A stretch of 40,000 bases of DNA from the NCBI RefSeq assembly GCF_001458595.1, contig NZ_LN890328.1:2244831-2284830 (forward strand), read 5' to 3'. The notes under the pieces were generated by a model that was not told the origin of the DNA, searched no databases, and saw only the letters and a program-made list of their open reading frames with translations. Made by a program: the position numbers and the translations under genes. Positions 12,131 to 38,511 of this stretch are shown one piece after another (within the stretch, counting starts at the first letter, position 1; each line of letters opens with the position of its first letter). Source of the stretch: Clostridium neonatale (GTDB lineage: Bacteria > Bacillota > Clostridia > Clostridiales > Clostridiaceae).

Positions 12131-12472
12131 TTCTTGTTATCATCCTATTCCTCAACAGTTCTAGCTTTACAATGCCTTTTATTTTTTTGTAAAATATTTC
12201 TTGTTACACTTTTTGTTACACCCTAAACCCTCTCTATTCCTTGCCTTTATATATATATTATATATATTGTAATAATAATATATAAATATATATATATAAT
12301 AAGGGAGATACATATACATACCTATATAGTATTATATATAAAGATAAGCACGTGTAATTTCAACTCTTGTTACACCTAGTGGAATTATCTTTAAACCCTT
12401 GTAATATCGGGGCTTAGAGGTGCGCAAAAGGGTGAAAATTCTTGTTACATAGGGCTGAAATTCTTGTTACTA
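12131..12472 (+). repeat. IR-L: composite module with six TTCTTGTTACA-type boxes around a TA-repeat core
   Basis: Boxes lie at 12131, 12198, 12210, 12364, 12439 and 12461, all in the same orientation. The TA-rich core is ~12246-12329. The 22-mer TATTATATATAAAGATAAGCAC lies at 12330-12351. The module is the inverted counterpart of 38143-38511. Confidence 0.85.
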
Positions 12473-12506
12473 TATATAAAATAACTGTTTATTTTTATTA
12501 AATATT

Positions 12507-12515
12507 TGTTATAAT
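12507..12515 (+). promoter_or_regulatory. Extended -10 promoter (TGTTATAAT) reading rightward out of IR-L
   Basis: Exact TGnTATAAT with AT-rich upstream sequence. No ORF lies downstream. Confidence 0.4.
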
Positions 12516-12522
12516 ATAAATA

Positions 12523-12652
12523 AGAAAAGCCTAGTGCGGGAACACTAAGCTTCTCCTAGAACGTTTTTAGTTTTAGGGCTATTGAAATTCACATATATAA
12601 ATATGTTTTAATGAAAAAGCACTTATTCTTGGTTAGATGGGGTGCTTTTTTC
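12523..12652 (+). ncRNA. Candidate antisense RNA (putative type I antitoxin) convergent with the 55-aa ORF
   Basis: Predicted start is ~7 nt after the -10 element. The possible 3' end is the hairpin AAAAAGCAC...GTGCTTTTTT (12614-12651). It is non-coding and fully complementary to the 3' UTR and last codons of the minus-strand ORF. The ends are predictions only. Confidence 0.3.
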
Positions 12653-12790
12653 ATTTGTGTTTAATTCAAAATTAATCCATTTAATTAAACTCAAACTTAT
12701 TTTACAATTCTTACTTTTAGGGTTTAACGCCACAATAACAACTGTTATTATAGCAACTATACACACTAATAGAACTATACAAATCCACAT
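12623..12790 (-). CDS. Small membrane protein, 55 aa (candidate type I toxin)
   Basis: Absent from the ORF track because it is under 60 aa. Sequence: MWICIVLLVCIVAIITVVIVALNPKSKNCKISLSLIKWINFELNTNEKSTPSNQE. The SD AAGGGGGTGG lies 7 nt upstream. It has an N-terminal TM helix and a polar tail. Confidence 0.5.
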   Translation of the reverse strand: MWICIVLLVCIVAIITVVIVALNPKSKNCKISLSLIKWINFELNTNEKSTPSNQE

Positions 12791-12879
12791 TTCAATACCA
12801 CCCCCTTAGACTATTATTTTTAATAGCCCAAGGCGGAAAACGTACAACCACCGCCCCCATCTTTGCGGAATATAGTGTT

Positions 12880-12888
12880 ATTATATCA
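12880..12888 (-). promoter_or_regulatory. Extended -10 promoter (TGATATAAT) for the 55-aa ORF
   Basis: Exact TGnTATAAT preceded by an A tract, ~85 nt upstream of the ATG. The leader contains the alternative pairing segments GGCGG / CCGCC / GGUGG (the last is the SD). Confidence 0.45.
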
Positions 12889-12963
12889 TTATTTGTTTTT
12901 ATGTGGAATATTTTTCTTTTATACAATTTATGCTTTTTAAACAGACATAATATTAACCTACAA

Positions 12964-12999
12964 AAAAGGAGATAACTAAATTAATAGTTGTCTCCTTTT
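12964..12999 (-). terminator. Hairpin terminator (unit U8) downstream of the 44-aa ORF
   Basis: 15-bp arms AAAAGGAGA(T/C)AACTA with a 6-nt loop, followed by a T run on the minus strand. Homologous to the U5 hairpin. Confidence 0.5.
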
Positions 13000-13075
13000 A
13001 GGTAAAATATGAATAAATATATAAAAAAAATGTTCCACCAAAATACATATCGAAATATTTTTAAATCACTTTAGC

Positions 13076-13210
13076 TTATATTAGTTCTTTTTTTACATAC
13101 TCTATTATAGTATCTTCTTCACCTTTAAATACATCTGCTAACTTTAATATAATCTCTTGATCTTCTATATCCATATCTTTTATTATCTCATACAATTTAT
13201 TATTGCACAT
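13076..13210 (-). CDS. Small acidic protein, 44 aa, unknown function
   Basis: My translation is MCNNKLYEIIKDMDIEDQEILLKLADVFKGEEDTIIEYVKKELI. The RBS is weak (GTGGGG). TATAAT lies ~25 nt upstream. Confidence 0.35.
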   Translation of the reverse strand: MCNNKLYEIIKDMDIEDQEIILKLADVFKGEEDTIIEYVKKELI

Positions 13211-13248
13211 AACTATACCCCACTGCTATTATATAAGCTTATATAAAG

Positions 13249-13281
13249 AGCTAGAAAAAGACTCTTTGTCTATCTCTAGCT
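13249..13281 (-). terminator. Hairpin terminator (unit U7)
   Basis: AGCTAGA...TCTAGCT outer stem with an inner GAC/GTC stem. Followed by CTTTATAT on the minus strand. Confidence 0.35.
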
Positions 13282-13429
13282 TTTTATGGTTTTTTTAACC
13301 ATAATTTAATACTCTTTTATAGTCATAATTGAATTCTTTTTTATTATAATTTACTTTTATATTTTTTATGTTAAATTTATGTTATATTTATATTAATTAT
13401 TTGTAAATATTTTATATTTTAAAACCAAA

Positions 13430-13509
13430 AGATAAAACAAAAGAGATAGCTTAAAAGGGGTTGGAAGCTATCTCTTTCTAAGTATTCTGGGCAAAAATAT
13501 TGTCTTTAC
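13430..13509 (-). ncRNA. Candidate small RNA unit U6
   Basis: Promoter TTGAAA (13545-13540), 18-nt spacer, TATAAT (13521-13516). About 80 nt without an RBS-led ORF. Perfect 12-bp hairpin AAGAGATAGCTT/AAGCTATCTCTT followed by TTTGTTTTAT. Confidence 0.35.
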
Positions 13510-13589
13510 ATACATATTATACTATAATTCTCCCAAACTTTTCAATATTTTATATCATATTTTTCAATACATTACATATTTTAATGTCA

Positions 13590-13667
13590 AGCAAAAAGAG
13601 ACAACTAAATTCATAGTTATCTCTTTTTTGATTATGTCATAAATATAAAATAATGAGTACCCCACTC
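13590..13667 (-). ncRNA. Candidate small RNA unit U5
   Basis: Extended -10 TGCTAAAAT (13682-13674). About 78 nt. Hairpin AAAGAGATAACTA/TAGTTGTCTCTTT followed by a T run. Confidence 0.3.
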
Positions 13668-13715
13668 AATTGTATTTTAGCATATTTTTAAATAACTTTA
13701 AACTCTAATTTATTT

Positions 13716-13793
13716 CATAGAAAAGAGATGGTCAAAGGAGCTATCTTTAAACCATCTCTTTAGGGAATTTTTGAACTAATTTGCATCTATTTC
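13716..13793 (-). ncRNA. Candidate small RNA unit U4
   Basis: TGATAATAT -10-like element (13808-13800). 11-bp hairpin AAAGAGATGGT/ACCATCTCTTT whose loop contains GCUCCUUUG (anti-SD-like), followed by a T run. Confidence 0.3.
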
Positions 13794-13841
13794 GTATCCA
13801 TATTATCATATTTTTTAACACTTTTCTATATTTTTCTACTC

Positions 13842-13904
13842 AAAAAAAGAAAGCCTATCTATAAAGGAGAGAAGTGTGGCTTTCTTTCTACTATTTGGAG
13901 TTAC
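13842..13904 (-). ncRNA. Candidate small RNA unit U3
   Basis: Extended -10 TGATAAAAT (13919-13911). 10-bp hairpin AAAGAAAGCC/GGCTTTCTTT whose loop contains UCUCUCCUUUA (anti-SD-like), followed by T7. Confidence 0.3.
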
Positions 13905-13929
13905 ATTTACATTTTATCATATTTTTACA

Positions 13930-14020
13930 TAAAAATAAAAGCCGATTAAAGAAATTAATCTCCAACCAGCTTTTACTATTTAATAGAATATGCAATCTTA
14001 GATCTGGGGATCACATTTTC
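13930..14020 (-). ncRNA. Candidate small RNA unit U2
   Basis: Promoter TTGAAA (14056-14051), 18-nt spacer, TGATATAAT (14035-14027). About 90 nt. Wobble-containing 12-bp hairpin AGCUGGUUGGAG/CUUUAAUCGGCU followed by UUUUAUUUUU. Confidence 0.35.
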
Positions 14021-14091
14021 AAAAATATTATATCATATGTTTTTTTAGCTTTTCAATTATTTTAAAGTATATTTTTTCTAAAAATCTATAT

Positions 14092-14171
14092 AATAAAAGT
14101 CAGCTAAAGAATTTAGTCTCTAACCGGCTTTTATTGTTTTCTATTTTATAGATATATGAATTTTTAAGTGT
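14092..14171 (-). ncRNA. Candidate small RNA unit U1
   Basis: CGATATAAT -10 element (14186-14178). About 80 nt. Its hairpin is homologous to that of U2 (AAAAGCCGGTTAGAGACTAAATTCTTTAGCTGACTTTT), followed by a T-rich run. Confidence 0.3.
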
Positions 14172-14234
14172 ATTGCTATTATATCGTATTTTTTTACATA
14201 ATAAAATAGTTTTTTTTATATTATTTAGCAAGTT

Positions 14235-14903
14235 CTATCTTATAGCATAGAACCAACTACCTAAAGTTTTCTGTAGCTCTTTACACTTTTCTATAGGCAA
14301 TACCTGCGTTTCTATCCATATACCTTTAGAATCTCCCTTTACATAACACCTTACACCTTTGAAATAATATAATACATATTCTAAGTCTACTCCTACAAAG
14401 CTACCATCACCACGATAGCCATTAGGCAAGTACGTAGTAACTATATAGCCTGTTGCTGTTTCTTCATTTTCCTTTAAAGCTTTAAAATCTGCTAGTGGAA
14501 AGTTAGCCCCTGGGCATTCTGTTGCTAATAATTCCTTGTGTCCATAAATAGGTAAGTTTCCATATTTACCTATTAAATATTTTATTAAATCTATTCCAGC
14601 ATTATATTCTGCTGTAGGCATTGTTTCTTTCATATAATTACCCTCAAAACAAATACCTAGTGTATTTGTATTACTACCTTGACAATGAGCTCCTATAGCT
14701 CCGTCTGGTCTACCTTTATAAATTGAGCCATCTTTTCTTATAAAATAATGATATCCTATTCCAGACCATCCATTATTTAAATGCCAAGAATGAATATCTT
14801 GTACAGTGCATTTACTTGCTTCTGCATGGTGCAATACTAATTTATTAGGTTTATTTCCATAACTTAATGATTTAAACTTTAATCCTACATCTATAATATT
14901 CAT
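14235..14903 (-). CDS. Endolysin: N-acetylmuramoyl-L-alanine amidase (Amidase_2/PGRP fold) with ~70-aa C-terminal domain
   Basis: LVLHHAEAS...IHSWHLNNGWSGIGYHYFIRKDGSIYKGRP...GAHC...GHKEL..TECPG are classic Amidase_2 zinc and catalytic motifs. GGAGG RBS. Confidence 0.9.
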   Translation of the reverse strand: MNIIDVGLKFKSLSYGNKPNKLVLHHAEASKCTVQDIHSWHLNNGWSGIGYHYFIRKDGSIYKGRPDGAIGAHCQGSNTNTLGICFEGNYMKETMPTAEYNAGIDLIKYLIGKYGNLPIYGHKELLATECPGANFPLADFKALKENEETATGYIVTTYLPNGYRGDGSFVGVDLEYVLYYFKGVRCYVKGDSKGIWIETQVLPIEKCKELQKTLGSWFYAIR

Positions 14904-14931
14904 TACAATTCCTCCAATTCATATAAAAATA

Positions 14932-14952
14932 AGGTGTTCATTAAGAACACCT
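14932..14952 (-). terminator. Hairpin between the holin and endolysin genes
   Basis: AGGTGTTC-TTAAT-GAACACCT followed by TATTTTTAT on the minus strand. Confidence 0.4.
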
Positions 14953-14957
14953 CTAAA

Positions 14958-15236
14958 TTATTCATCTTTAACTAATTGCTTTGCAGTTTGATTAACTCCA
15001 ACAGCTACACCCCAACATAAGATTCCTTGTAAAATTGCATTGGCTAAATTATTTACATTTAAACCACTATTAATTGAGTTCAAAAGTATAGAAAATACTA
15101 TACAAAATACCATTAAAATCATGGTAATATATTTATCCTTTATGCTTTCTATTTTCTTTAAAAATATTCCTAATACATATGTGGCAACAATTAGTATAAT
15201 AAGATTTTCTGGTATAAATTTTAGTAAGTTTTCCAT
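14958..15236 (-). CDS. Putative holin
   Basis: 92 aa with 3 predicted TM helices and a charged C-terminus. It lies directly upstream of the endolysin. Confidence 0.7.
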   Translation of the reverse strand: MENLLKFIPENLIILIVATYVLGIFLKKIESIKDKYITMILMVFCIVFSILLNSINSGLNVNNLANAILQGILCWGVAVGVNQTAKQLVKDE

Positions 15237-15259
15237 TTTTACATTCCACCTTTTCTAAA

Positions 15260-15484
15260 TTATTTAAATAAAAGAGCTATAGCTCCAGCAACAACTGCTC
15301 CAACTATAGTCCTCCATAACCATGTGTTATTTTTTTCTAAGTCTTCAATTCTATGATTCGCTACTTTTAATTTATCCTCTAAGTTTTCTAACTGCAAATT
15401 AATTGACTGTGGAATATTTTCTAGTAGCATTTCTATTTTTACAAGTCTTTCTCTTATTTCTTGTATAGTGTCTTTATCATCCAT
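15260..15484 (-). CDS. xhlA: XhlA-family protein (lysis-associated, C-terminal TM anchor)
   Basis: Coiled-coil N-terminus plus WLWRTIVGAVVAGAIALLF at the C-terminus. It has the same position as PBSX xhlA, before the holin and amidase. Confidence 0.7.
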   Translation of the reverse strand: MDDKDTIQEIRERLVKIEMLLENIPQSINLQLENLEDKLKVANHRIEDLEKNNTWLWRTIVGAVVAGAIALLFK

Positions 15485-15602
15485 ATTGCACCTCTTTCTT
15501 AATTTTTAATATAAAATAAGCATAATAAAAAGGTCCATATGACCTCTAAATTATGCTTTCATTTATTAATTTTTGAATTTTATTTTACTGCATCCCTTTC
15601 GC

Positions 15603-15734
15603 CTATTGCGTAGCTTTACTTGCAATAATTTCTTGCTTTTGTTCTTCTGTAATCCATCTAGCATTAACAAATACATCTAAATTACTTTCTGTATAAAGTC
15701 CCAACAAATAGTATTCTTTAATATAACTAAGCAT
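15603..15734 (-). CDS. xkdX: XkdX-family small phage protein
   Basis: Absent from the track (43 aa). MLSYIKEYYLLGLYTESNLDVFVNARWITEEQKQEIIASKATQ matches the XkdX pattern (YY..G.YT..D...FV....IT.E). The ATG overlaps the upstream stop. Confidence 0.7.
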   Translation of the reverse strand: MLSYIKEYYLLGLYTESNLDVFVNARWITEEQKQEIIASKATQ

Positions 15735-16134
15735 TTGTACTACCTCCCGCTATTTGTAATAATATTTGTGCATTTAATTTCTTTTGTTCTTCCAACTCTA
15801 ATTGCATATTAGCATTATCCTGCAATAACTTAGCATTTAATATTTGCTGTTCTGTTGGTTGCTGTACTGGTATAGGAAATAAGCTTTCCTTTTCTTCATC
15901 AGTTAGCTCTACAACTTCATTATTTACATATTTATAATTACATCTGCCTTGCGAATCTCTTAACGGCTTATCTCTTGGAAAATAATTACCTTGTGCATGA
16001 GAATATTTATCCCCAATACCTTCATCAATTTGTATATATCCACTTGTATCTTCTAAGGTTAAATCACTTTCTACGCCAATAATACAATTATTTTTATCTG
16101 TTTTTATATATATTTTATACTTGAATTCTTCCAT
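15727..16134 (-). CDS. Tail-fibre-associated protein (possible fibre chaperone/assembly protein)
   Basis: The track ORF extends to 16161; ATG 16134 is preferred because of the TAGGAGGTG RBS. The assignment rests on its position between the fibre gene and xkdX, with a coiled-coil C-terminus. Confidence 0.5.
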   Translation of the reverse strand: MEEFKYKIYIKTDKNNCIIGVESDLTLEDTSGYIQIDEGIGDKYSHAQGNYFPRDKPLRDSQGRCNYKYVNNEVVELTDEEKESLFPIPVQQPTEQQILNAKLLQDNANMQLELEEQKKLNAQILLQIAGGSTNA

Positions 16135-16144
16135 GTTGCACCTC

Positions 16145-17149
16145 CTAGTATATTTCTGCATCTAAACTTCCATCATCAGATAGCATTAACTGTCCATCAC
16201 TCATTCCATGAGTCGATTTTGTAGCATGAACTATCATCCCCATAGGTACAATGTTAACTGCAAAGGTAAAATCTGACACACCTGCTCCACTTAAAGTATT
16301 TATAGAAAATGCATTATTTATAGTTGGTATTATTCTTAATGTTGTAGGTAATGGTACAAAAAAGAATAATTGATTGCCATTAATACCAACAGCTCTATAC
16401 CTAGCTCTTTCATTTCCCCATCTATAATAATATCTTTGACACAAAGCCAATTCTTCGCCATATGGTCGTGGGACGAATGGTGTTGCTTTTGAACCTAGTT
16501 CAAATTTTGCATTTTCAAATCTTATATATAAATCATCTCCTACTGTAAATTTGTTATCTTCTTCTATCCTAAAAATGTCTATTCCTAACCAATCATCAGA
16601 ACTCAAATCTCCAAGTGTAATCTGACATTCGATTAGTTGTCTTGTTGCCTTTGCTTCATATGATTTCAAAAATATATTTGCATTTCTGCTTGGAGACCAT
16701 ACTCTAATATAAGGACTTATTTTTACACCAGCACTGGTAGTCACATAAAATGATAAAGTAACAGTACTATTCGAAAAAATATTCTTAAGTTCTTGATTTA
16801 ACTCAATTCTTTGCATAAACCAAAATCTTTTATTAGAAATTAATTTAATTTGAACGCCACCATTAGCATGTCTAACAATTTTACCTTTGTCATCACCTTC
16901 TACATCATACATCCATCTATCAGCAGTATATCCGTTAGTAGAGAATGATGTTCCCCTCTGCCAAACTGAAAAGCCACCATTTATAAATAAATTAAGATTC
17001 GCCAAATCGTTCAATTGCGTAGTAATTTCTCCTGCCCATTTATCTATTTTATCTGAATTAGAATTGACTCTTTCTACATCATAGCTATCATCAACACTAT
17101 CCTTACTTAAATTTAAATTAGTGGTGTATGTCCCTTGATAATCACTCAT
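16145..17149 (-). CDS. Tail fibre / receptor-binding protein
   Basis: Lies after the baseplate genes. The N-terminus TNLNLSKDSVDDSYDVERVNSNSDKIDKW is typical of the fibre attachment region. Confidence 0.6.
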   Translation of the reverse strand: MSDYQGTYTTNLNLSKDSVDDSYDVERVNSNSDKIDKWAGEITTQLNDLANLNLFINGGFSVWQRGTSFSTNGYTADRWMYDVEGDDKGKIVRHANGGVQIKLISNKRFWFMQRIELNQELKNIFSNSTVTLSFYVTTSAGVKISPYIRVWSPSRNANIFLKSYEAKATRQLIECQITLGDLSSDDWLGIDIFRIEEDNKFTVGDDLYIRFENAKFELGSKATPFVPRPYGEELALCQRYYYRWGNERARYRAVGINGNQLFFFVPLPTTLRIIPTINNAFSINTLSGAGVSDFTFAVNIVPMGMIVHATKSTHGMSDGQLMLSDDGSLDAEIY

Positions 17150-17696
17150 TTATAAACACTTCCTCTCTTAATTGTTTATGTGTATATTGATTTAATTGTC
17201 TATGTGTAAATCCTGAAAGTATTTTATGACTGTTATAAAGTAAAGATAAATCAATAAGCATATTTAAAGGTGACATTTTTTCTAACATTAACTCAACTTC
17301 TTCATATGCCTTTTTAGAAATTAGATCAACTCTTACTTTTATTATTTCATTATCATAATCAATATTTAATGTATATCCATTTTCTCCACATAAAGCTTTT
17401 AATTTATTTTTCAAAACTCTATATGTGTATGGTAATTTTTCTATTTCTCTAGATAACAATCTAAACTTTCTATCATCTAAAGTTTCAGTGTTTTTAGGTT
17501 TAATGCTAAGCATATTCTCCCTATGAGCAACACCATATTCATCACTAGAACTTATAAATTGATTATTTTGTGCCCTTTCTATTTCTGCCCACAACATATT
17601 TATTTCTGGGTTAAGTGCTTTAGAAATCTGTTTTTGTTCTTCTGTATCTGCTAGTACTGGTGGAATATAGTCTAAAATACTAATTACTCTGCTCAC
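17142..17696 (-). CDS. XkdU-like tail/baseplate protein (DUF2313-like)
   Basis: Assigned by position after baseplate J and by the pattern ...NMLWAEIERAQNNQFISSSDEYGVAHRENMLSI... Confidence 0.65.
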   Translation of the reverse strand: MSRVISILDYIPPVLADTEEQKQISKALNPEINMLWAEIERAQNNQFISSSDEYGVAHRENMLSIKPKNTETLDDRKFRLLSREIEKLPYTYRVLKNKLKALCGENGYTLNIDYDNEIIKVRVDLISKKAYEEVELMLEKMSPLNMLIDLSLLYNSHKILSGFTHRQLNQYTHKQLREEVFINE

Positions 17697-18753
17697 TTAC
17701 AGTCCCCCTCTTAGGAATATTGTCAGCATCCAATACAAGATTTTCAGCTATACTATTTATTTTGGTATCAGCAATATCAAGTATTCCTTCGATATTCAAT
17801 AATCTTGTTTCAATTTGACTTATCCTTACTACTAAATTATCATTATCAGACCATGTCTTTTTAAGTTCAATAAAATACTCATCTATAGTGGTATTTATAT
17901 AGTCTTTTACATCATCGAAAGAATATCCACCTTGATATGTTAGATTGGTTGAAATATTAATTTCTGTTTCATTTACTGGGTTAATAACTACCTTATGGCC
18001 TATTGGCGCAAGTCCAATTCCTTCACCTTGATTTTCTATTGGATCTAATTGCTCTTGTATACTATTAATAAATTCTGTTGTTGGTTTTTGCCATGTTGAA
18101 GTGATAACAACAATTTTTATAAACTTATTACTTTCTGTAACTCTATAAATCTTTATACCACCTACACCACTTATATCATCTTTAAACATCTTTTTATAAT
18201 CTGCTCTATTCCCACCAAAGGCCTTGCTATCATAACTTTCAAAGTAATCTTTTCGCAACTCTTCTGTACCCTCTTCATCTTCTCCAGGTATTAATAATTC
18301 AGTTAATTTAGCACTTGTTAACCCTTGTATATGATCTATAGGAATCATATTTCCGAACGTACCATTTCCAATAGTTCCAAGTGTTTCACATTGTAACTTA
18401 TAGGTATGTTCAGTATCATTTATTAGTTCAATGATTCTATAACTTAAGCTATCACAAGTAAATCTTGAACCAATATCTACAGCAATATCAAATTTTCCTT
18501 TTAATACTGCATAAGTAGCATTTATAGGTGTAATCCCTCTTTCTGCTGCTCTCTTAATTAAAAATTCTCGACTTGCTGTATCAGCAAAGGTTTCACTTAA
18601 CAGTCCATCTAATGCAATATACATATTTTGAAGCTCAACGCAAACCGCTGCTACTGGAGTATGAATAGGTCCTCCTTCTCTTGTATCAAATCCACTATCT
18701 ACTCTTGCAAGACTTCTATTCACTAATAAATCATAAGTGATATCTTCATACAT
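17680..18753 (-). CDS. Baseplate J-like protein (XkdT-like)
   Basis: 357 aa with the N-terminus YEDITYDLLVNRSLARV...REGGPIHT..., typical of the baseplate J/gp47 family. Confidence 0.8.
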   Translation of the reverse strand: MYEDITYDLLVNRSLARVDSGFDTREGGPIHTPVAAVCVELQNMYIALDGLLSETFADTASREFLIKRAAERGITPINATYAVLKGKFDIAVDIGSRFTCDSLSYRIIELINDTEHTYKLQCETLGTIGNGTFGNMIPIDHIQGLTSAKLTELLIPGEDEEGTEELRKDYFESYDSKAFGGNRADYKKMFKDDISGVGGIKIYRVTESNKFIKIVVITSTWQKPTTEFINSIQEQLDPIENQGEGIGLAPIGHKVVINPVNETEINISTNLTYQGGYSFDDVKDYINTTIDEYFIELKKTWSDNDNLVVRISQIETRLLNIEGILDIADTKINSIAENLVLDADNIPKRGTVSEQSN

Positions 18754-28587: not shown

Positions 28588-28591
28588 AAGA

Positions 28592-31188: not shown

Positions 31189-31213
31189 CTTTCAATTCCT
31201 CCTAAAATGAGCC

Positions 31214-31387: not shown

Positions 31388-31420
31388 ATTCTATCACTCC
31401 TTAAATTTTTGCATAATAAA

Positions 31421-31450
31421 AGCACCTACTCATTTTTCTAAGTAAGTGCT
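31421..31450 (-). terminator. Hairpin terminator overlapping the 3' end of the head morphogenesis gene
   Basis: AGCACUUACU-(10 nt)-AGUAGGUGCU followed by UUUAUUAU. Its arms are nearly identical to those of the terminator at 23206-23228. Confidence 0.5.
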
Positions 31451-32674: not shown

Positions 32675-34073
32675 CTTTATCAGCCTCCTCATTATCATCT
32701 TTATTTGGAAATGCACCTTTATAATCATCATTATCTTGCTGCTTTTCTTCGCCTTCTTTTTTCTTCTGTTCTGCTTCCTTATCAGCATCTTCAACGAATG
32801 GGTGATTTTTATATAATGTTAAATTACTTAATAGTCCCATAGATGAAGTACATATATCAGCTAATTCTGAATCATTCGTTACTGCTGTCCTAGTCCATGT
32901 TTGAATTATTGATTTACATTCAACATTTAGATATCTACATATTGCTCTAACAAACTCACCAAAACCTAATTTAAATTCTGTTTCAGTAAGTCCAGCTTTA
33001 AGCTCTAGTAAAGAATATAGAAACTTCAACGCAACACCTGAAGCATTTCCAAAGTCTTGTTGTTGTGGATCTACTCCTTGACCTTGTTCAAATATTGCTT
33101 TCCTTGTCATAGTCAAAAGTTTTTCTCTAGCTTCTATTGGAATATCTATTGTTAATGTCTGCAATCCACTTCTATCTCCAGCCCCACTATCATTCACCTT
33201 AACAGTCTTATATTTTTTAAGCTGAGACAAGAACTCTCTTGAGTCTTCTCCTTCATAATTAGTAAGTATGAATATTATTTCCTGGATATCCTCAAGATCA
33301 TTAACAAAGCCACTAAAGACTTTATCATACACGTCTATTAGTGGTTTTACATTATCTAAATCACTTGTCATTAAATTGTTATTTCCAAATGGTATAAATG
33401 GAACTCTTTCAAATCCATGGTTAAATTCATTACTTTGTTGATTTGCATTAGAATCTACTATAAAATTACTAAACATTGTATAAATTTCTAATCCTTCATC
33501 TATAGTAAGATCAGATTTCTTTCTAAATGCTTGGCATGTAATATCATTCCAATATTCATAAATATCATAAGTTACACCTTCATCATCTGTATCATTATAA
33601 ACTCTTAATATTCCTAAAAGCTTTTTATTTAAACTACTGGACCATATCGGAATTATTTGCTTACTATCTACTACACCATATTCAAATTCTTTATCATCAT
33701 TTAACCAATAATGTAACCATGCTATGCCACTATTAGCAGCATTGATACATAAATCCTTACAAACTTTAGCATAGTTGTCTCCTAATAAATCCGTAATTCT
33801 TTTATTAGCTTCTTTATTTCCAACATCAAAAAGTGGTGGAGCAGTAAACATATATGATGCTTTTTGATTAACAAGTAATCCATGAAAATTAGAACTTATC
33901 CTATTATCTGCATTTCTTAATGGATTTTCTGAATCTTCATCTTTCTTTCTGTCATATGTTAATATATCATTCTTATTTCTGTAATATCTTTCTGCTGTAA
34001 ATGATTTGCATACTATATCTGAATGACCTGTTGTATGCTTCTTAATTAATTTCTTTACTACTTCTATATCCAA
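32664..34073 (-). CDS. Portal protein (SPP1 gp6-like)
   Basis: 469 aa, lying after terL, with an acidic C-terminal tail. The family pattern matches. Confidence 0.85.
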   Translation of the reverse strand: MDIEVVKKLIKKHTTGHSDIVCKSFTAERYYRNKNDILTYDRKKDEDSENPLRNADNRISSNFHGLLVNQKASYMFTAPPLFDVGNKEANKRITDLLGDNYAKVCKDLCINAANSGIAWLHYWLNDDKEFEYGVVDSKQIIPIWSSSLNKKLLGILRVYNDTDDEGVTYDIYEYWNDITCQAFRKKSDLTIDEGLEIYTMFSNFIVDSNANQQSNEFNHGFERVPFIPFGNNNLMTSDLDNVKPLIDVYDKVFSGFVNDLEDIQEIIFILTNYEGEDSREFLSQLKKYKTVKVNDSGAGDRSGLQTLTIDIPIEAREKLLTMTRKAIFEQGQGVDPQQQDFGNASGVALKFLYSLLELKAGLTETEFKLGFGEFVRAICRYLNVECKSIIQTWTRTAVTNDSELADICTSSMGLLSNLTLYKNHPFVEDADKEAEQKKKEGEEKQQDNDDYKGAFPNKDDNEEADKDEQ

Positions 34074-34168
34074 TTAATTCACCTCAATTCTTGTGCTAAT
34101 CTTTTAATTTTTCTATAATGAAATTACAAGTGTTTCCAACACTGAGTACTTATGAAAGGAGTTTAAAT

Positions 34169-34399
34169 ATGGGTAAAAATCAATGGGTGTCTCCTCGTAA
34201 TGGACAGTGGGCTGTACATGGAGAAAGAAATCAAAAAGATACAAAAATCTTTAATACTCAAAAAGAAGCCTTGAACCATGCTATAAAAATTGCTAAAAAT
34301 CAAAAGAGCGAAGTCATTATTCAAGGTAGAGATGGTAGAATACGCTCTAAAGACAGTTATGGAAATGATTCCTGCCCTCCCAAAGATACTGAAAATTAA
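34169..34399 (+). CDS. DUF2188-like small protein (opposite strand)
   Basis: MGKNQWVSPRNGQWAVHGERNQKDTKIFNTQKEALNHAIKIAKNQKSEVIIQGRDGRIRSKDSYGND matches the DUF2188 pattern. The AAAGGAG RBS precedes ATG 34169; the track start at 34118 is less likely. Confidence 0.7.
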   Translation: MGKNQWVSPRNGQWAVHGERNQKDTKIFNTQKEALNHAIKIAKNQKSEVIIQGRDGRIRSKDSYGNDSCPPKDTEN

Positions 34400-34542
34400 T
34401 CATACTTTGGTGTAATTCTAACCCTGTAACCTTTAATTACATCTATATATTCTGGTGTAATTTCTGCAATAGTTACAGGGATTTTTTCATCAGTTTCTAT
34501 TACAACTTTTGAATAATCTTTTAATGTTTTTTCTTCATTCAT
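34396..34542 (-). CDS. Small protein, 48 aa, unknown function
   Basis: Absent from the track. MNEEKTLKDYSKVVIETDEKIPVTIAEITPEYIDVIKGYRVRITPKYD, with an AAGGTGGTGA RBS. Its stop overlaps the convergent DUF2188 stop. Confidence 0.45.
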   Translation of the reverse strand: MNEEKTLKDYSKVVIETDEKIPVTIAEITPEYIDVIKGYRVRITPKYD

Positions 34543-34556
34543 ATTTTATCACCACC

Positions 34557-35996
34557 TTATTTAAATATTGACATACCACTAGGTTTATTTATCATTTCTG
34601 CTATTCCAGTTGTAGCATCTGGAGCATCATCATGCTTGTTCTTTCCTTCACGTTGATATTTAATCATGGCATTATAATATTCTGGCCATCTGTCTTTCCA
34701 ATTTGACGGAAAGTATATATGTTCCAGTACCCAAGTTGAATTACTAAGTATCCTAGCTTCTTTATTCTTAGATTGATGAAATGGCTTAATAACTGTTTTA
34801 TTGCTGCCAAACTTCTCTTTTAATATTCTTTTTACATTTCTTGCAAAGCCTTCTCCACCATTGTTACTCTCAATATCTGCTTTATTGACATTACCTTGAT
34901 ATAACATCTTAGCAGTTTCATTTTCAGTAACTGACATATCCTTTTGTGTATAAAGTACGTCTAATATATAAGCTTCTTTATCATAAACACCATAGTTAAT
35001 ACTACATAAGTAATCCTCTCCCTTGTCTGCTGTATCTGTATAGTTCTTAATAGCTGTAAATAGTAAATTACCATTACTATCCTTAGGCAATTCTGTATAG
35101 GTCTTAAGTTTAGGATATAAACGACCTTTTAAGTCTATAGGCTCTTGTTGATAATTTGCACTTGCTATATCTGCCCCCATAGTCTTAATTTTATTTTCAT
35201 ATGACTTTCTACTTAATACTTCATCACAAAGCATTGTTCCATCATCTTGAAGGGCTTTCATAGATATATGCTTAATCTTTCTGTCAGCCATTTCTTCAAG
35301 TACTTTACCTGCTAAATCATCACTGGCCCATCTAGTCATTATGATTATTATTTTTCCGCCTTCTTCTAAACGTGAAAGCATTGTATTAGTAAACCACTCC
35401 CAGTGCTTTTCTTTAACACCTTCGTTATTGGCTTCTTCTGCATTCTTGATTAAATCATCAATAATCATTAATGAACATCCAAATCCTGTTGCTGTTCCAG
35501 TAGGAGATGTGGCAAGATAATTATTATATCCGCCTTCTAAGCTCCATAAGTTCATAGCACCATCACCACGCTTTATGGCTACATCAGGAAATACATCACT
35601 GAATACTGGTTTATACTTATCTGCCTTTTCTTCCTGGATGCTATTTCTAACATTCTTAGAGAACATAGTTGAAAGAGTTTCATTATATGATCCAGTCATT
35701 ATCTTTTCAGTTTGATTTTTACCAAGTACCCATTCAACAAATAATCCTGCCGTTCTTGATTTTCCATGTCTAGGAGGTTCATTTACTACAAGTATTTCAT
35801 CTTCACCCTCATAGAACTCTTGAAGGTCATTACATAGCTCTACTAGATATTTTCTATTTGGTTTATAAAAGTCAGGTGCTTTTAAATTGCAGTAACTAAA
35901 AAAAGACCTTCTGGCCTTTAATATAGATAGCTTTAATTTCTTTTCCTGTAATTCTTCTAATGCTTTTAAGTATTCCAGCCTATCCATCCTTATCAA
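34557..35996 (-). CDS. terL: Terminase large subunit
   Basis: Walker A-like PPRHGKS, Walker B MIIDDLI and a C-terminal nuclease region. The start is TTG 35996 or ATG 35987, overlapping the terS stop. Confidence 0.85.
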   Translation of the reverse strand: MIRMDRLEYLKALEELQEKKLKLSILKARRSFFSYCNLKAPDFYKPNRKYLVELCNDLQEFYEGEDEILVVNEPPRHGKSRTAGLFVEWVLGKNQTEKIMTGSYNETLSTMFSKNVRNSIQEEKADKYKPVFSDVFPDVAIKRGDGAMNLWSLEGGYNNYLATSPTGTATGFGCSLMIIDDLIKNAEEANNEGVKEKHWEWFTNTMLSRLEEGGKIIIIMTRWASDDLAGKVLEEMADRKIKHISMKALQDDGTMLCDEVLSRKSYENKIKTMGADIASANYQQEPIDLKGRLYPKLKTYTELPKDSNGNLLFTAIKNYTDTADKGEDYLCSINYGVYDKEAYILDVLYTQKDMSVTENETAKMLYQGNVNKADIESNNGGEGFARNVKRILKEKFGSNKTVIKPFHQSKNKEARILSNSTWVLEHIYFPSNWKDRWPEYYNAMIKYQREGKNKHDDAPDATTGIAEMINKPSGMSIFK

Positions 35997-36417
35997 TTCC
36001 TAATTTTTTCTCTAGCTTACTTATTTCATCTTCCAGTTGATCTTCAGTTAAATTACTTGTATTTTCTACTTTAGCATTAATAGTGCTATTACTTTCAACT
36101 TGCTTTTTATCTTCCCATCCAAAATTATTCTTTAATGCAAATATAGAAAATGTGACATTACTTTCACCAGTTAATGCTCTTTCTTCCATAGATGCTTCAA
36201 CTATATCTTTAGCCTTTTTTATAGTGGGGAAAAATTCATCTTTTTCAGAATAGTTATATAATGTTTTTCTATCTATTCCTATCCATAAAGCGAGTCCACT
36301 TAATGTATAAGGCTTATTATGTTGTTCACATCTTTGCCAGTATTCCATTATCTTTTGTTCTAATTCTTCTTGTGTCCTAAATATTCTCGGTCTACCTACT
36401 GCCTTTTTCTCATCCAT
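35980..36417 (-). CDS. terS: Terminase small subunit
   Basis: N-terminal HTH-like region GRPRIFRTQEELEQKIMEYW...YTLSGLALWIGIDRKTLYNY. Lies upstream of terL. Confidence 0.8.
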   Translation of the reverse strand: MDEKKAVGRPRIFRTQEELEQKIMEYWQRCEQHNKPYTLSGLALWIGIDRKTLYNYSEKDEFFPTIKKAKDIVEASMEERALTGESNVTFSIFALKNNFGWEDKKQVESNSTINAKVENTSNLTEDQLEDEISKLEKKLGIDKDG

Positions 36418-36452
36418 AGACTCACCTTCCTTTCTGTTTTATTGCATAATAA

Positions 36453-36478
36453 AAGGACTCTATTTTTCTAGAATCCTT
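36453..36478 (-). terminator. Intrinsic terminator after the 228-aa secreted-protein gene
   Basis: AAGGAUUCUA-GAAAAA-UAGAGUCCUU followed by UUAUUAUG. Confidence 0.5.
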
Positions 36479-36488
36479 TCCTTTAACA

Positions 36489-37175
36489 TTATTCATTATG
36501 ATCAACTTTATCCCATATATAAGCTACATCTTTATATTCTTCATCAACCTTATTATATAATTTATCTACTTCATCCATTACAGGCTTTTGAACTTTATCA
36601 AGCTCTTTATATAATTCCTCCAATTCTTTATAATATGGTTCAAGTTTCTTTTGTGTAGCTAGTAGCTTGTCTTTTTCACTAGCTGTTAAAACAGGTAGTG
36701 ATTTTATATAATTTACCATGCTATCATATATGCTTTCTTCATTATTATCATCTAAACTTTCTTCATTTATGTCAAATCCATTAATAAGCTTGCTCGCTTC
36801 GTATTTATGGGCTTTATCCATTATTTTGCTATCTTCATTTTGTATTTCATAAATTTTATCATCCACTGCTTGTATTTTAACTCTTACATCAGCACCAAGA
36901 CTATCAGCCTTATCAAGTAATATATCAATTTGTTTATATATGGGTTGTATCACTTTTTCTGATTCTATTAATTTTTGTTTTTCATCATTGCTTATACCTT
37001 TTAAAGATAATATATATTCTTTAAATTCTTTATCTAATATGTAATCTTCTTGAACTTGAACCACTTCATTTTCTTTTATTTTATTAGCATTCGCTGTTGA
37101 AGCAAATACACCTGTTGATGCTGAACTAACAACCATACATCCAATCAATAACATTTTTAATAAATTCTTTTTCAT
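36489..37175 (-). CDS. Secreted protein with an internal tandem duplication, unknown function
   Basis: Signal peptide MKKNLLKMLLIGCMVVSSASTGVFA. Two ~70-aa helical repeats: YILSLKGISNDEKQKLIESEKVIQPIYKQID... and YIKSLPVLTASEKDKLLATQKKLEPYYKELE... Confidence 0.7.
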   Translation of the reverse strand: MKKNLLKMLLIGCMVVSSASTGVFASTANANKIKENEVVQVQEDYILDKEFKEYILSLKGISNDEKQKLIESEKVIQPIYKQIDILLDKADSLGADVRVKIQAVDDKIYEIQNEDSKIMDKAHKYEASKLINGFDINEESLDDNNEESIYDSMVNYIKSLPVLTASEKDKLLATQKKLEPYYKELEELYKELDKVQKPVMDEVDKLYNKVDEEYKDVAYIWDKVDHNE

Positions 37176-37279
37176 AATAAACCATCTCCCTCATTTCTTT
37201 CTTATACTTATAAGACGATTTATATATTATAAAAAGTTTTAAATTATTTATAAATTCAAAAAAATTTTTATAAATAATA

Positions 37280-37303
37280 AAAGACACCCAACTGAGTGCC
37301 TCT
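37280..37303 (-). terminator. Weak hairpin plus U run in the leader downstream of the repeat-containing promoter
   Basis: AGAGGCAC-UCAGUUGG-GUGUCUUU (two G-U pairs) followed by UAUUAUUUAU. It begins ~14 nt after the predicted start site. Confidence 0.3.
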
Positions 37304-37323
37304 TGATAAATTTCTATGATAGT

Positions 37324-37410
37324 ATTATATAATACTTTTTCCACTAAAACGTGATTAAAAAGTGTACAAAAAGTGTTGTAAAAGTGGTATAAACGCGGTC
37401 AAAAAGTGTT
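37324..37410 (-). promoter_or_regulatory. Candidate late promoter: 11-bp-phased CAC(T/G)TTTT repeats ending at the -35 position of a TATAAT
   Basis: On the minus strand the CAC starts lie at 37408, 37386, 37375, 37364 and 37353, giving spacings of 22, 11, 11 and 11 nt. A degenerate copy lies in between. TATAAT is at 37329-37324. Confidence 0.5.
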
Positions 37411-37876
37411 ATGGATATATTAACTCGCTTAAATAATTAATCACACCAGTCCTTATCTTCTTGCAATAATCTTTATCAAATCCTAGCTCTTGACCAATCT
37501 CTATCCATGATTTTTTATTTCTACCACTAAGATATCTTAATTTAACAAGTTTATATTCATTTTCTGATAATTGCTGCAAAGATGATTGTATTTTTATTTT
37601 TAAATCTGAATAATATTTTTTCTTAGCTTTTAAAATACAAATTTGTTCCTGAATATATTCCTCTCGTCTTATAACTTCATCTTCCACACTTGATGTAATT
37701 TTATGTGTTGGACTTGATTTTTCCTCAAATGATATAGCTCTAACTGTTATATCATTTTCTAAATTTTCAATATCTATTTCTATATTTTTAATTTTGGTAT
37801 CTAAACTATTGTAATTATAAAGTGAAGATTCTGTTTTCTTAAACTTATTTTCTTTCATATTCATAACCAAACCCAT
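37409..37876 (-). CDS. RinA/ArpU-type late transcriptional activator (sigma-70 region 4-like HTH)
   Basis: SSLYNYNSLDTKIKNIEIDIENL... and the C-terminal LSENEYKLVKLRYLSGRNKKSWIEIGQELGFDKDYCKKIRTGVINYL fit the RinA/ArpU pattern. The true start may be ATG 37864. Confidence 0.7.
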   Translation of the reverse strand: MGLVMNMKENKFKKTESSLYNYNSLDTKIKNIEIDIENLENDITVRAISFEEKSSPTHKITSSVEDEVIRREEYIQEQICILKAKKKYYSDLKIKIQSSLQQLSENEYKLVKLRYLSGRNKKSWIEIGQELGFDKDYCKKIRTGVINYLSELIYP

Positions 37877-37905
37877 CCTTTATGTTATAATATTAGATGG
37901 GTAGT

Positions 37906-37956
37906 GCATTAGAGAAAGTATATAAATTGGCGTTTATAGTTCTCTAATGCTTTTTT
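37906..37956 (+). terminator. Plus-strand terminator-like hairpin between the 53-aa ORF and the activator gene
   Basis: GCATTAGAGAA-(23 nt)-TTCTCTAATGC followed by T6 on the plus strand only. Confidence 0.35.
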
Positions 37957-37968
37957 ATATTAATTATT

Positions 37969-38130
37969 TTAGTTTCTTTTTTCTTCCATCTTTTGTATCT
38001 CTGATTTCAACTGTCTTCTCTCATTTAATAAATATCTATTAGGTTTATGATTACTCCTATATGCCTTTCTAATTTGAGATTCAACTTCTTTTAATCTATC
38101 TTTTTTAATTTCTAACATATTAAAACCCAT
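37969..38130 (-). CDS. Small coiled-coil protein, 53 aa
   Basis: The track ORF extends to 38187, but ATG 38130 follows GTGAGGTG. Sequence: MGFNMLEIKKDRLKEVESQIRKAYRSNHKPNRYLLNERRQLKSEIQKMEEKRN. Confidence 0.5.
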   Translation of the reverse strand: MGFNMLEIKKDRLKEVESQIRKAYRSNHKPNRYLLNERRQLKSEIQKMEEKRN

Positions 38131-38142
38131 CAAAATCACCTC

Positions 38143-38511
38143 ACGTAACAAGAATTTAAGGCTCATGTAACAAGAATTTTTAGTCATTATTATGCCTTAA
38201 ACCCTCACTATTTCTAAGGTTACATAGATTTCTACATCTGTAACAAGATTTAAAATTGTATGTGCTTATCTTTATATATAATATATAGTATCTATCTATG
38301 TATATATATTTCTCTTTATATATATATATATATATTTATTATTATTATTACATATATATATAATATATAAGGGAACATAGAAACGGTGAGGGTTTCGGCT
38401 GTAACAAAAAGTGTAACAAGAATTTTTTCCAATTTTTTAAAATTGCGTTCTATCCTTTACACCTTGAGCCTTTGCACTGTCATAAAAATTGTAATAATTC
38501 TGTAATAAGAA
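38143..38511 (-). repeat. IR-R: inverted counterpart of IR-L (six boxes plus TA-repeat core)
   Basis: GTAACAAGAA-type boxes on the plus strand lie at 38143-38154, 38165-38176, 38238-38249, 38399-38410, 38411-38422 and 38500-38511. The TA-rich core is ~38284-38369 and the 22-mer is at 38262-38283. The module fills the whole intergenic gap. Confidence 0.85.

Follow-up and report, generated by a model that had tools for sequence, protein, structure and literature searches.

Two inverted, diverged copies of a putative iteron-type replication origin bracket the late region of a Clostridium neonatale prophage

Our analysis of a 40,000-nt stretch of Clostridium neonatale DNA (the window) suggests that two modules at the ends of a prophage's 26-kb late region, IR-L and IR-R (Table 1), most likely represent the prophage's replication origin in two old copies that have since diverged. 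Each would probably be an iteron-type origin of the SaPI/PICI kind, with the phage's own primase-helicase as initiator, and IR-R is most likely the phage origin. SaPI islands and phage SPP1 provide precedents in principle for such a layout, which is not known to have been described for the large Clostridium prophage family concerned here.

Results

The two modules are colinear inverted copies

IR-L and IR-R lie ~25.7 kb apart as colinear inverted copies, and the coordinates, sequences and inverted alignment with kept spacings given by an earlier, sequence-only reading were reproduced here. The 23-mer TTCTTGTTACACTTTTTGTTACA occurs in the window only at 12198-12220(+) and 38400-38422(-), and the 22-mer TATTATATATAAAGATAAGCAC only at its two positions in Table 1; the number expected in shuffles is 0 for each. 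Allowing at most one mismatch, we counted 15 occurrences of the box TTCTTGTTAC in the window, whereas shuffles gave 5.4 +/- 2.5 and 0/100 of them reached 15; 12 of the 15 fall inside IR-L and IR-R. Within each module of the window all six boxes share one orientation. Boxes 5 and 6 are 22 nt apart in both modules, boxes 4 and 5 are 75 and 73 nt apart (IR-L and IR-R, respectively), and box 3 and the 22-mer 120 and 127 nt; the gap between the 22-mer and box 4 is the same in both, at 12 nt with an 11-mer box definition or 14 nt with the earlier one.

Table 1. Features of the two modules and their surroundings (window coordinates)
Feature	Position	Strand	Remarks
attL junction	11870..11885	.	start of homology to L012 phage-side sequence; placed ~11877
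Terminator hairpin	12042..12067	+	between attL and IR-L
IR-L, second diverged inverted copy	12131..12472	+	end of late region, just inside attL
IR-L left repeat cluster	12131..12220	+	box 1 12131-12140, box 2 12198-12207, box 3 12210-12219
IR-L TA-only core	12246..12302	.	
IR-L copy of conserved 22-mer	12330..12351	+	
IR-L right repeat cluster	12364..12470	+	box 4 12364-12373, box 5 12439-12448, box 6 12461-12470
DUF722 / RinA-ArpU-like late regulator, 155 aa	37409..37876	-	homologues carry PF05263; phrog_36 E 1e-21
53-aa coiled-coil ORF	37969..38130	-	directly after box 6
IR-R, canonical origin-type module	38143..38511	-	between early/replication side and 53-aa ORF + DUF722
IR-R right repeat cluster	38145..38249	-	box 4 38240-38249, box 5 38167-38176, box 6 38145-38154
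IR-R conserved 22-mer TATTATATATAAAGATAAGCAC	38262..38283	-	
IR-R TA-only core, putative DNA unwinding element	38315..38370	.	30-nt windows up to 96-100% A+T
IR-R left repeat cluster	38401..38511	-	box 1 38502-38511, box 2 38413-38422, box 3 38401-38410
313-aa accessory gene	38513..39454	-	between replication genes and IR-R; matches phrog_11432 (function unannotated)
SpoIIID-like gene	39476..39703	-	frameshifted in the window's prophage

Between the two modules, identity is 59/66 (89%) in the boxes, 22/22 in the 22-mer, 78% in the TA core and 52% in the remaining spacers. The central ~290 nt are ~76% identical overall. Because of this central identity, IR-L and IR-R are diverged paralogues with more than the boxes in common.

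The module belongs to a family found beside a primase-helicase gene

Modules of the same type were found in diverged Clostridium prophages and phage-plasmids (L021, L032-L036, C. sporogenes CM007813.1, two C. estertheticum plasmids and C. kluyveri pCKL555A), whose primase-helicases show 44-59% identity. They consist of 6-10 GTWAC-core repeats split by a TA-only core, and their place is always the same, with the ~865-aa primase-helicase gene upstream and a small coiled-coil ORF and a DUF722 (RinA/ArpU-like) gene downstream. The module starts no more than ~60 bp from the primase-helicase stop codon in L021, L033, L034 and pCKL555A, and accessory genes can intervene so that the distance ranges from 0 to ~4.4 kb; on the small ORF/DUF722 side, an RBS or start codon always follows at 5-60 nt. 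Repeat orientations are mixed in the relatives, and the TGTWACA core is nearly palindromic. A sequence related to the 22-mer, TATAAAGAT(A/C)AG, is present in L021 and pCKL555A.

IR-R matches the relatives' single module in position, and its copies in 11 other loci of the same prophage type are 98-100% identical, with a TA core of polymorphic length (box 3 to box 4 distance, 157-163 nt). As noted before, it takes up the whole space separating the 313-aa gene from the 53-aa ORF, with box 6 abutting the RBS. Homologues of this ORF, which has no Pfam or PHROG match, directly follow the module in relatives too. The 313-aa gene is missing from L016, L017, L019 and L020, all of which retain the module, and is dispensable for it. 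The primase-helicase gene ends ~2.4 kb past IR-R, at ~40.9 kb counted from the window start and so slightly beyond the window's end. L025 lacks both the primase-helicase and the module, and its ERCC4 gene stands immediately before DUF722.

Only one module is present in each of four complete circular relatives. The duplication therefore seems to be specific to a lineage, and a second copy would not be needed for replication in the family.

IR-L is retained in varied contexts

The first box of IR-L lies 254 bp inside attL (~11877), in agreement with the ~250 bp given earlier. The prophage integrates by a serine integrase, and in the circular form the integrase gene is followed by the hairpin that stands between attL and IR-L. 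Two metagenome contigs, L001 and L002, both terminate within the IR-L TA core, and their copies of IR-L are partial.

It seems unlikely that IR-R alone is functional and that IR-L is a passenger without a role of its own, acquired as an origin copy when a related phage recombined with this one. Such a history would fit the sufficiency of one module in the four circular relatives, the location of IR-L close to attP, in accessory DNA that has few ORFs and tends to collect foreign sequence, and a natural variant (L013) whose IR-L lacks one 22-nt box 5/6 unit. However, the 89-100% conservation of boxes and 22-mer, against ~52% in other spacers, is unexpected for a neutral relic. Moreover, all seven other contexts seen carry IR-L, 97-100% identical to that of the window, beside different integrases or the host junction, and none of the seven substitutions in the L001 copy affects boxes 1-3, a pattern that is not significant alone.

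The proposed initiator resembles SaPI Rep, and its C-terminal part covaries with the repeats

The AlphaFold model of the primase-helicase has a mean pLDDT of 82.5. Its best Foldseek matches in the PDB include SCCmec Cch (5dgk; E 4e-14, TM 0.64), the SaPIbov1 replication initiator-helicase (8tch; E 1e-13, TM 0.65), the SaPI5 primase-helicase (7ola) and PriRep1 with dsDNA (7pds); in sequence the protein is only ~10-13% identical to Rep proteins. Its primase part, a zinc ribbon plus Toprim, is of the DnaG-like type. Genes for RecT, an SbcC-like ATPase and an ERCC4 nuclease are likewise present in the phage.

In each element the flanks of the repeats vary in concert (TTCTTGTTACA, TTTTGTTACAA, AGTTACA, GGTTACtT, TGTTACACTTT, ATGTTATTA). 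Across 9-11 related elements with small repeat samples, repeat type covaried with the C-terminal 150 aa of the primase-helicase (Mantel Spearman r=-0.61, 0/5000 permutations; second set r=-0.56, 8/5000) and more weakly with its middle, and no covariation was seen with its N-terminal 300 aa or the adjacent ERCC4 gene.

DUF722 did not covary with repeat type either (r=-0.18, 924/5000 permutations), which bears on the proposal that the modules are operator arrays for a phage regulator (the DUF722/RinA-like, SpoIIID-like, 53-aa or 323-aa sigma-like protein) that activates both the late-regulator operon, at IR-R, and, at IR-L, a transcript that reads inward. The module does always lie directly upstream of the small ORF and DUF722, an extended -10 (TTGTTATAAT) and a well-folded ~130-nt RNA are found 3' of IR-L on the plus strand, and the reverse complement of the box, TGTAACAAGAA, presumably has ACAAG in common with the B. 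subtilis SpoIIID site. We nevertheless consider this proposal quite improbable. Identical repeats accompany DUF722 proteins only 54% identical in L035/L036, where the primase is 98% identical, and only 33% identical in L033/L199, and DUF722 occurs without a module in L025 and L078. The boxes are intact in many copies with a broken SpoIIID-like gene; whole in L008 (PF12116; phrog_11726), this gene is frameshifted in the window and N-terminally deleted in L016, L017 and L020, and L021 has no such gene. The 313-aa gene is optional, the 323-aa gene was not found in relatives, and no sigma-70-type promoter is common to IR-L and IR-R. The candidate operator-binding proteins listed earlier (SpoIIID-like, 53-aa, 313-aa and RinA-like) are not supported.

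The earlier reading also raised inversion and partition. Inverted repeats that bracket a defined segment could let the 26-kb late region invert by crossover between them, and modules of this kind might also be packaging (pac/cos) or partition sites, the terS gene being ~1.7 kb downstream of IR-R; we hold all of these roles to be highly improbable. Among ~70 contigs inspected in the neighbourhood of the 313-aa, 72-aa and amidase genes, neither junction expected from inversion was seen, and no invertase was found near the modules. Identical IR-R copies stand upstream of three different terminase types, which argues against packaging. As for partition, no par genes were found near the modules or in the other examined parts of this prophage type, and ParM-bearing relatives have a single module elsewhere.

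Discussion

Of the roles suggested earlier, the iteron-type origin with a TA unwinding element is the one favoured by the conservation of the module beside the primase-helicase, the structural homology of that protein to SaPI Rep, and the covariation of its C-terminal part with the repeats. Two clusters of short repeats (core GTTAC, here extended to TTCTTGTTACA) would flank an easily melting TA-only stretch, and the initiator would be the phage's ~865-aa protein, made up of a zinc-ribbon/Toprim primase, a Rep-like self-loading helicase and a C-terminal DNA-binding region. We infer that this protein binds the repeats and that the core then melts and the origin fires. IR-R would be the canonical origin, where every relative has its single module, and IR-L an old inverted second copy at the opposite end of the late region, beside attP, in which the initiator sites and TA core were retained while the remainder drifted; because of this retention, it is probably bound by the same protein. 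IR-L may be a second origin or else an initiator-bound partner site, either a fork barrier triggering a switch from theta to concatemeric replication, as proposed for SPP1 oriR, or a looping or handcuffing partner, as in P4 ori-crr. Initiator-mediated looping between IR-L and IR-R is possible.

Several observations count against an origin. The boxes of each window module point one way, whereas SaPI iterons are opposed on the two sides (PMC9371898). The module abuts the small ORF/DUF722 and lies up to ~4.4 kb from the primase-helicase, which would also fit a late-switch regulatory region. Four circular relatives have one module only, the remnant L078 retains primase-helicase and DUF722 without it, and the covariation comes from few, related elements.

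The earlier statement that no described phage feature has this layout was too strong, since SaPI origins (PMC9371898) and SPP1 oriL/oriR (PMC6316719) come close. SaPI origins have 6-12 penta- or hexanucleotide iterons and an AT-rich centre just downstream of rep, and Rep binds the iterons through its C-terminal winged helix (PMC9371898). The likeness extends to short repeats that lie downstream of the initiator gene on both sides of an AT-rich centre, to a self-loading helicase initiator (primase-fused in SaPI5) that the phage model matches, and to an element-specific repeat sequence that tracks the protein's C-terminal part. However, the host of the module here is a full temperate phage or phage-plasmid of Clostridium and not a satellite, the primase domain of the protein is DnaG-like, the protein as such has low sequence identity to Rep, accessory genes may part gene and origin, and the window modules have one-way repeats and a second, distant, inverted copy.

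[quoted passage not shown] In both phages two origin-like sites lie far apart, one by the replication genes and one in an accessory late-region stretch, and the RecT-type recombinase and nucleases also present here could restart a stalled fork. In contrast, gp38 works with a separate loader and a DnaB-type helicase where we propose one primase-helicase of Rep/D5-like fold, and oriL is inside gene 38 while both window copies are intergenic.

Paired sites are also familiar from other elements. The alpha protein of satellite phage P4 combines primase, helicase and origin binding in one polypeptide and recognises two separated clusters of the same repeats, ori and crr, the DNA between which can be looped; crr, which is needed in cis, lies only ~4.5 kb away from ori and is less than a full origin copy. 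The second site here is complete, including its TA core, lies 26 kb away, and is one that relatives do without. P1 incA and F incC are likewise clusters of initiator-binding repeats away from the origin that can pair with origin-bound initiator; they lack an unwinding element and serve plasmid copy-number control, whereas the element described here integrates into the chromosome.

The two modules and their setting

The prophage is integrated in a gene for an NMT1-like substrate-binding protein of an ABC transporter, and the annotated 264-aa NMT1-like ORF is a chimera whose 5' end now comes from phage DNA; box 1 of IR-L sits 254 bp inside the prophage. The early region, as read from other loci, encodes a serine integrase, a repressor, RecT, an SbcC-like ATPase, a 323-aa sigma-like protein, an ERCC4 nuclease and a primase-helicase of ~865 aa, whose gene ends 2.4 kb past IR-R, just beyond the window. 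We estimate the prophage at ~42 kb, and record coordinates of other loci of the same prophage suggest that the modules would divide the circular form into a late arc of ~26 kb and an att/early arc of ~16 kb. Copies of this prophage are very frequent in public assemblies (266 indexed blocks for the 313-aa protein, 598 for a 72-aa gene call and 473 for the amidase) and one instance lies at ~3.5875-3.6295 Mb of the complete genome OU997945.1 (assembly GCA_919162555.1); a search of IMG/VR with the 313-aa protein found nothing. Tandem related prophages occupy the locus in some genomes (L011/L012 on one scaffold, L009/L016 on one contig), and at L009 a second prophage, with a 536-aa serine integrase, CI/Cro and an actin-like Alp7A-type gene, lies slightly deeper in the same host gene.

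Features of the window bearing on the two modules
Feature	Position	Strand	Remarks
Host chromosome	1 to ~11877		ZapA, MurT/GatD, D-Ala-D-Ala carboxypeptidase, ABC transporter
NMT1-like gene	11299-12093	-	integration target
attL	~11877		inside the NMT1-like gene
Inverted repeat	12003-12034		~100 bp outside IR-L box 1
IR-L	12131-12472	+	TA core 12246-12302
55-aa ORF terminator	12521-12558
~130-nt RNA	12523-12652	+	right behind IR-L box 6
55-aa hydrophobic ORF	12623-12790	-
55-aa ORF promoter	12880-12907		TG-extended -10
ORF-poor stretch	12900-14235		1.3 kb, IR-L to amidase gene
XhlA, holin and amidase genes	14235-15484	-	end of late genes
Terminase genes	34557-36417	-	small and large subunits, late genes
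Hairpin	37905-37955		between 53-aa ORF and DUF722 gene
53-aa ORF	37969-38130	-	then DUF722 (RinA/ArpU-like, 155 aa)
IR-R	38143-38511	-	between 313-aa gene and 53-aa ORF; TA core 38315-38370
313-aa gene	38513-39454	-
SpoIIID-like gene	39476-39703	-

The sequence-only reading had placed two inverted composite modules around the late region, and this placing is borne out. A 23-mer and a 22-mer each occur twice in the window, once per module and on opposite strands, where shuffled sequence is expected to hold neither. The box 10-mer TTCTTGTTAC, allowing at most one mismatch, occurs 15 times against 5.4 +/- 2.5 in shuffles, with 12 of the 15 matches inside IR-L and IR-R and the boxes of each module all on one strand. 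Aligned with each other, the modules are colinear inverted repeats with ~25.7 kb between them, and their box spacings differ by only 0-7 nt. The pair is real and non-random. Each module carries six boxes, with the GTTAC core intact in five or six of them, arranged as three on either side of a ~56-nt TA-only core, and all six 11-mers within a module share one orientation. AAGG/CCTT motifs recur between boxes 4 and 5, and the conserved 22-mer has a TATAAAGATAAG-like counterpart in several relatives.

Overall identity between IR-L and IR-R is ~76%, and it is unevenly spread: 100% in the 22-mer, 89% in the boxes, 78% in the TA core and 52% in the remaining spacers. IR-R copies from other instances of the same prophage are 98-100% identical to one another, and full-length IR-L copies are 97-100% identical to that of the window (95% for a partial copy in the IMG/VR contig L001). 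Since each type is so uniform while the two differ from each other, IR-L and IR-R are old paralogues on separate evolutionary paths, in both of which the boxes and the 22-mer have stayed constant. Copies differ in the length of the TA core, the distance from box 3 to box 4 being 157-163 nt, and L001 and L002, also an IMG/VR contig, terminate inside it; short-read assemblies of these prophages therefore break there. With both modules as queries, blastn gave no match among 50,697 phage records, and an Rfam search of the whole window matched no family.

One locus of the same prophage type (L013, 12433-12760) holds a natural IR-L variant that keeps a single 22-nt box 5/6 unit instead of two. Outside IR-L, the inverted repeat GTAGTTACT-N14-AGTAACTAC adds two more GTWAC cores and is also conserved in L001; it may be a further site for the initiator or a plain hairpin after the integrase gene.

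The module as a family feature

Diverged elements were reached through homologues of DUF722 and of the primase-helicase, and their primase-helicases are 44-59% identical to that of the window prophage. They include a small island in C. neonatale-type genomes (L021), prophages (L028, L032-L036) and four complete circular phage-plasmids (C. sporogenes CM007813.1, C. estertheticum pCM034-48 and pCM034-51, and C. kluyveri pCKL555A). The build of the module recurs in all these diverged relatives, with one module seen in each, and the four complete circular elements have a single one. In the integrated diverged relatives (L032-L036, L028), an exact 17-mer search for second copies returned one occurrence per contig; three gapped or degenerate repeat patterns gave at least 120 matches each, those listed being chance matches.

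The common build starts with two to four short repeats and a TA-only stretch, in which a pair of repeats is often embedded, followed by a single repeat after an A/T run, a GC-richer spacer of 50-70 nt and two or three further repeats, the last of which reach the RBS of a small coiled-coil ORF in most elements, with DUF722 next. Relatives hold 7-10 repeat cores, of the form GTTAC/GTAAC (TGTTATTA in pCKL555A), with flanks that are uniform inside one element and different between elements; orientation is mixed in L021, L028, L033, L034 and L199, a further relative. The module begins straight after the primase-helicase stop codon in L021, L033, L034 and pCKL555A, and the distance to that gene is 2.4 kb in the window prophage type and up to ~4.4 kb in L032; IR-L lies far from the gene. 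The module is always tight against the side of the small ORF and DUF722, and accessory genes come in between the module and the primase-helicase gene. A role in the expression of the small ORF/DUF722 operon could coexist with a function as an origin.

The L021 island (indexed in 142 blocks) spans ~5 kb and is made up of an HTH gene, a 73-aa gene, the primase-helicase, the module, DUF722 and a 145-aa gene; its neighbours are agrBD and a histidine kinase. It is either a satellite-like element or what remains of a prophage whose replication module was kept. In many relatives (L028, L032, L033, L199, L200) a small serine recombinase (resolvase/invertase family) is also encoded 1-2 kb beyond the module on its downstream side, and L028 and L032 have, in addition, a tyrosine recombinase immediately upstream; the window prophage lacks both.

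Repeats vary with the C-terminus of the primase-helicase

To relate the repeats to proteins, a repeat position matrix was built for each element and repeat distance was compared with protein identity (Mantel Spearman, 5000 permutations). Repeat type followed the C-terminal 150 aa of the primase-helicase (r=-0.61, 0/5000; r=-0.56, 8/5000 in a second element set), with weaker tracking of the middle of the protein (r=-0.53, 21/5000) and a weaker and inconsistent relation to the N-terminal 300 aa (r=-0.37, 107/5000 in the first set; r=-0.03 in the second). There was no tracking of the adjacent ERCC4 gene (r=-0.10), nor of DUF722 (r=-0.18), although the latter is the gene physically nearest to the module. 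Individual pairs show the same: L035 and L036 share their repeats and have primase-helicases 98% identical with DUF722 proteins only 54% identical, L033 and L199 share repeats with DUF722 33% identical, and L034 and L036 differ in repeats with DUF722 64% identical. Given the small sample of related elements, we take this covariation as support rather than proof of an element-specific pairing between the repeats and the primase-helicase C-terminus.

The idea that the boxes form an operator array for the RinA/ArpU-like DUF722 protein fits poorly with this lack of covariation and with the presence of DUF722 where the module is missing. In L025, DUF722 comes straight after ERCC4, and both primase-helicase and module are missing; L078, a decayed remnant and the only locus returned by a protein scan of genome contigs, has primase-helicase and DUF722 and lacks the module. 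The genes on the early side of IR-R fare no better as sources of a binder. L016, L017, L019 and L020 lack the 313-aa gene, and in these four the SpoIIID-like gene lies directly against the module; the SpoIIID-like gene is itself broken in the window, L016, L017 and L020, with the boxes unchanged everywhere. Among candidate box binders, the SpoIIID-like, 313-aa, sigma-like and DUF722 proteins are therefore rejected or weakened. A scan of IR-L and IR-R for sigma-70-type promoters found none common to both.

A putative replication origin and its proposed initiator

Pfam recognizes in the primase-helicase a DnaG-type zinc ribbon, a weak Toprim domain and a P-loop, and nothing else, and tblastn against the 50,697 phage records gave weak DnaG-domain matches only. 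An AlphaFold model built with 25 homologues (mean pLDDT 82.5) has as its best Foldseek matches in the PDB the SCCmec Cch helicase (5dgk), the SaPIbov1 replication initiator-helicase (8tch), the SaPI5 primase-helicase (7ola) and PriRep1-DNA (7pds), with E from 1e-14 to 1e-5, followed by poxvirus D5/E5 and other primase-helicases. This relationship to Rep is visible only through the structure model; a profile search of PDB sequences yielded just the DnaG zinc ribbon. The replication protein is thus one primase-helicase polypeptide with a Rep/D5-like fold, and the helix-helix-hairpin pattern at the C-terminus of the model probably corresponds to a winged helix.

SaPI origins contain 6-12 penta- or hexanucleotide iterons with an AT-rich centre, immediately downstream of rep; the iterons are recognized by the C-terminal winged helix of a self-loading helicase, and in SaPI5 a primase is fused to Rep (PMC9371898). 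The window modules resemble these SaPI/PICI origins in the number of short repeats and in the central AT-rich region with repeats on both sides. The putative cognate protein is, by structure match, a Rep-type self-loading helicase with a putative C-terminal DNA-binding domain, and repeat sequence and proposed initiator are paired element by element. The likeness has a limit in that SaPI iterons are opposed across the AT region, whereas the window boxes all point in one direction. IR-R is most likely the phage replication origin, in which putative initiator-binding repeats would flank an unwinding element and be recognized by the C-terminal region of the primase-helicase. Of the three roles proposed from sequence, an iteron origin with a TA unwinding element is accordingly the one well supported, and the others, looping or insulating operators and substrates for inversion, are not.

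Inversion of the 26-kb segment would leave recombinant junctions at both modules. Neither expected junction appeared in ~70 contigs read around the flanking genes, which returned the order early side-module-72 aa or lysis-accessory region-module-att and no others; there is no invertase near the modules, and no small serine recombinase near either of them. A packaging (pac/cos) site was also considered for IR-R and rejected, since an identical IR-R precedes three unrelated terminase sets (GP3_package+Terminase_6; HTH_23+Terminase_6; Terminase_2+Terminase_3/6N).

The second copy

IR-L has the same boxes and 22-mer as IR-R, has a TA core too, and is retained in every context seen, from which we infer that both would be bound by the same protein, the primase-helicase. 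The single module of the complete circular relatives indicates that the second copy would be a lineage-specific duplication or capture that the replication system does not appear to require. By analogy, IR-L may serve as a second origin, a barrier or a pairing partner. For a phage with two sites of this sort, the nearest precedent is SPP1, whose oriL and oriR share a repeat plus AT-rich organization and both bind gp38; fork stalling at gp38-bound oriR is the proposed trigger of concatemeric replication, helped by a recombinase and nucleases (PMC6316719). The window phage has the same organization of two distant sites and a toolkit analogous to the SPP1 recombinase and nucleases, but SPP1 uses a gp38-type initiator with a separate loader and a DnaB-type helicase, in place of the single primase-helicase here. 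P4 ori/crr and plasmid control iterons offer further analogies for looping or handcuffing.

It is conceivable, though we consider it unlikely, that the inverted, polar modules act as a pair that switches replication mode or the dosage of the late segment. Initiator bound to IR-L would stall or capture a fork coming from IR-R, or the two sites would be bridged, and circle-to-circle replication would give way to recombination-driven concatemer synthesis; alternatively, the 26-kb late/packaging segment would be preferentially over-replicated. If true, origin duplication would have given the integrating lineage a built-in replication-mode or gene-dosage switch of its own.

SaPI-type origins and SPP1-type dual origins are already known as kinds of element; what is new is a probable origin of this type in a large Clostridium phage family and the inverted duplicate arrangement around a late region. 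The assignment of origin and initiator is offered for a very common family of prophages and phage-plasmids, with more than 500 distinct primase-helicase homologues in C. botulinum, C. butyricum, C. beijerinckii, C. sporogenes, C. kluyveri and others, which is absent among the sequenced isolated phages (50,697 phage records). Origins built on a self-loading helicase with short iterons, as in staphylococcal satellites, would thereby extend to full temperate phages in a different order. Moreover, the two-module prophage and its one-module relatives provide a natural comparison for the function of a second origin, a question that dates from SPP1 oriR, and for Clostridium genetics the module/initiator pairs are candidates for orthogonal replicons.

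Neighbouring small genes and RNAs

A frameshift breaks the SpoIIID-like gene of the window, which reads MNDYI and then a stop (ATTGAAGCT in L008, ATTTAGCT in the window). The lesion in L016, L017 and L020 is another one, with the N-terminal part deleted between GGATGG repeats; among the copies compared, those of L008 and L019 alone are intact, which looks like repeated independent decay of one gene. On the late side of IR-R, the small coiled-coil ORF (the 53-aa ORF in the window, with counterparts in L032, L033, L035, L199 and pCKL555A) has the family motif (K/E)DRI(E/K)xI(E/D) and matches nothing in Pfam or PHROG. The strong hairpin that follows it, GCATTAGAGAA...TTCTCTAATGC, may be a terminator or attenuator ahead of the late regulator.

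Beyond IR-L, the 55-aa hydrophobic ORF has its own promoter and terminator, and a ~130-nt RNA that starts after TTGTTATAAT converges on it, with a fold z of -4.1 and a terminator at its end; from their layout the two form a possible type I toxin-antitoxin pair (12523-12907). The ORF-poor stretch that follows contains repeated units on the minus strand, each with a promoter-like TATAAT box and a hairpin terminator (for example 13934-13981 / 14092-14139 and 12964-12999 / 13593-13628), which may be several small RNA or peptide genes.
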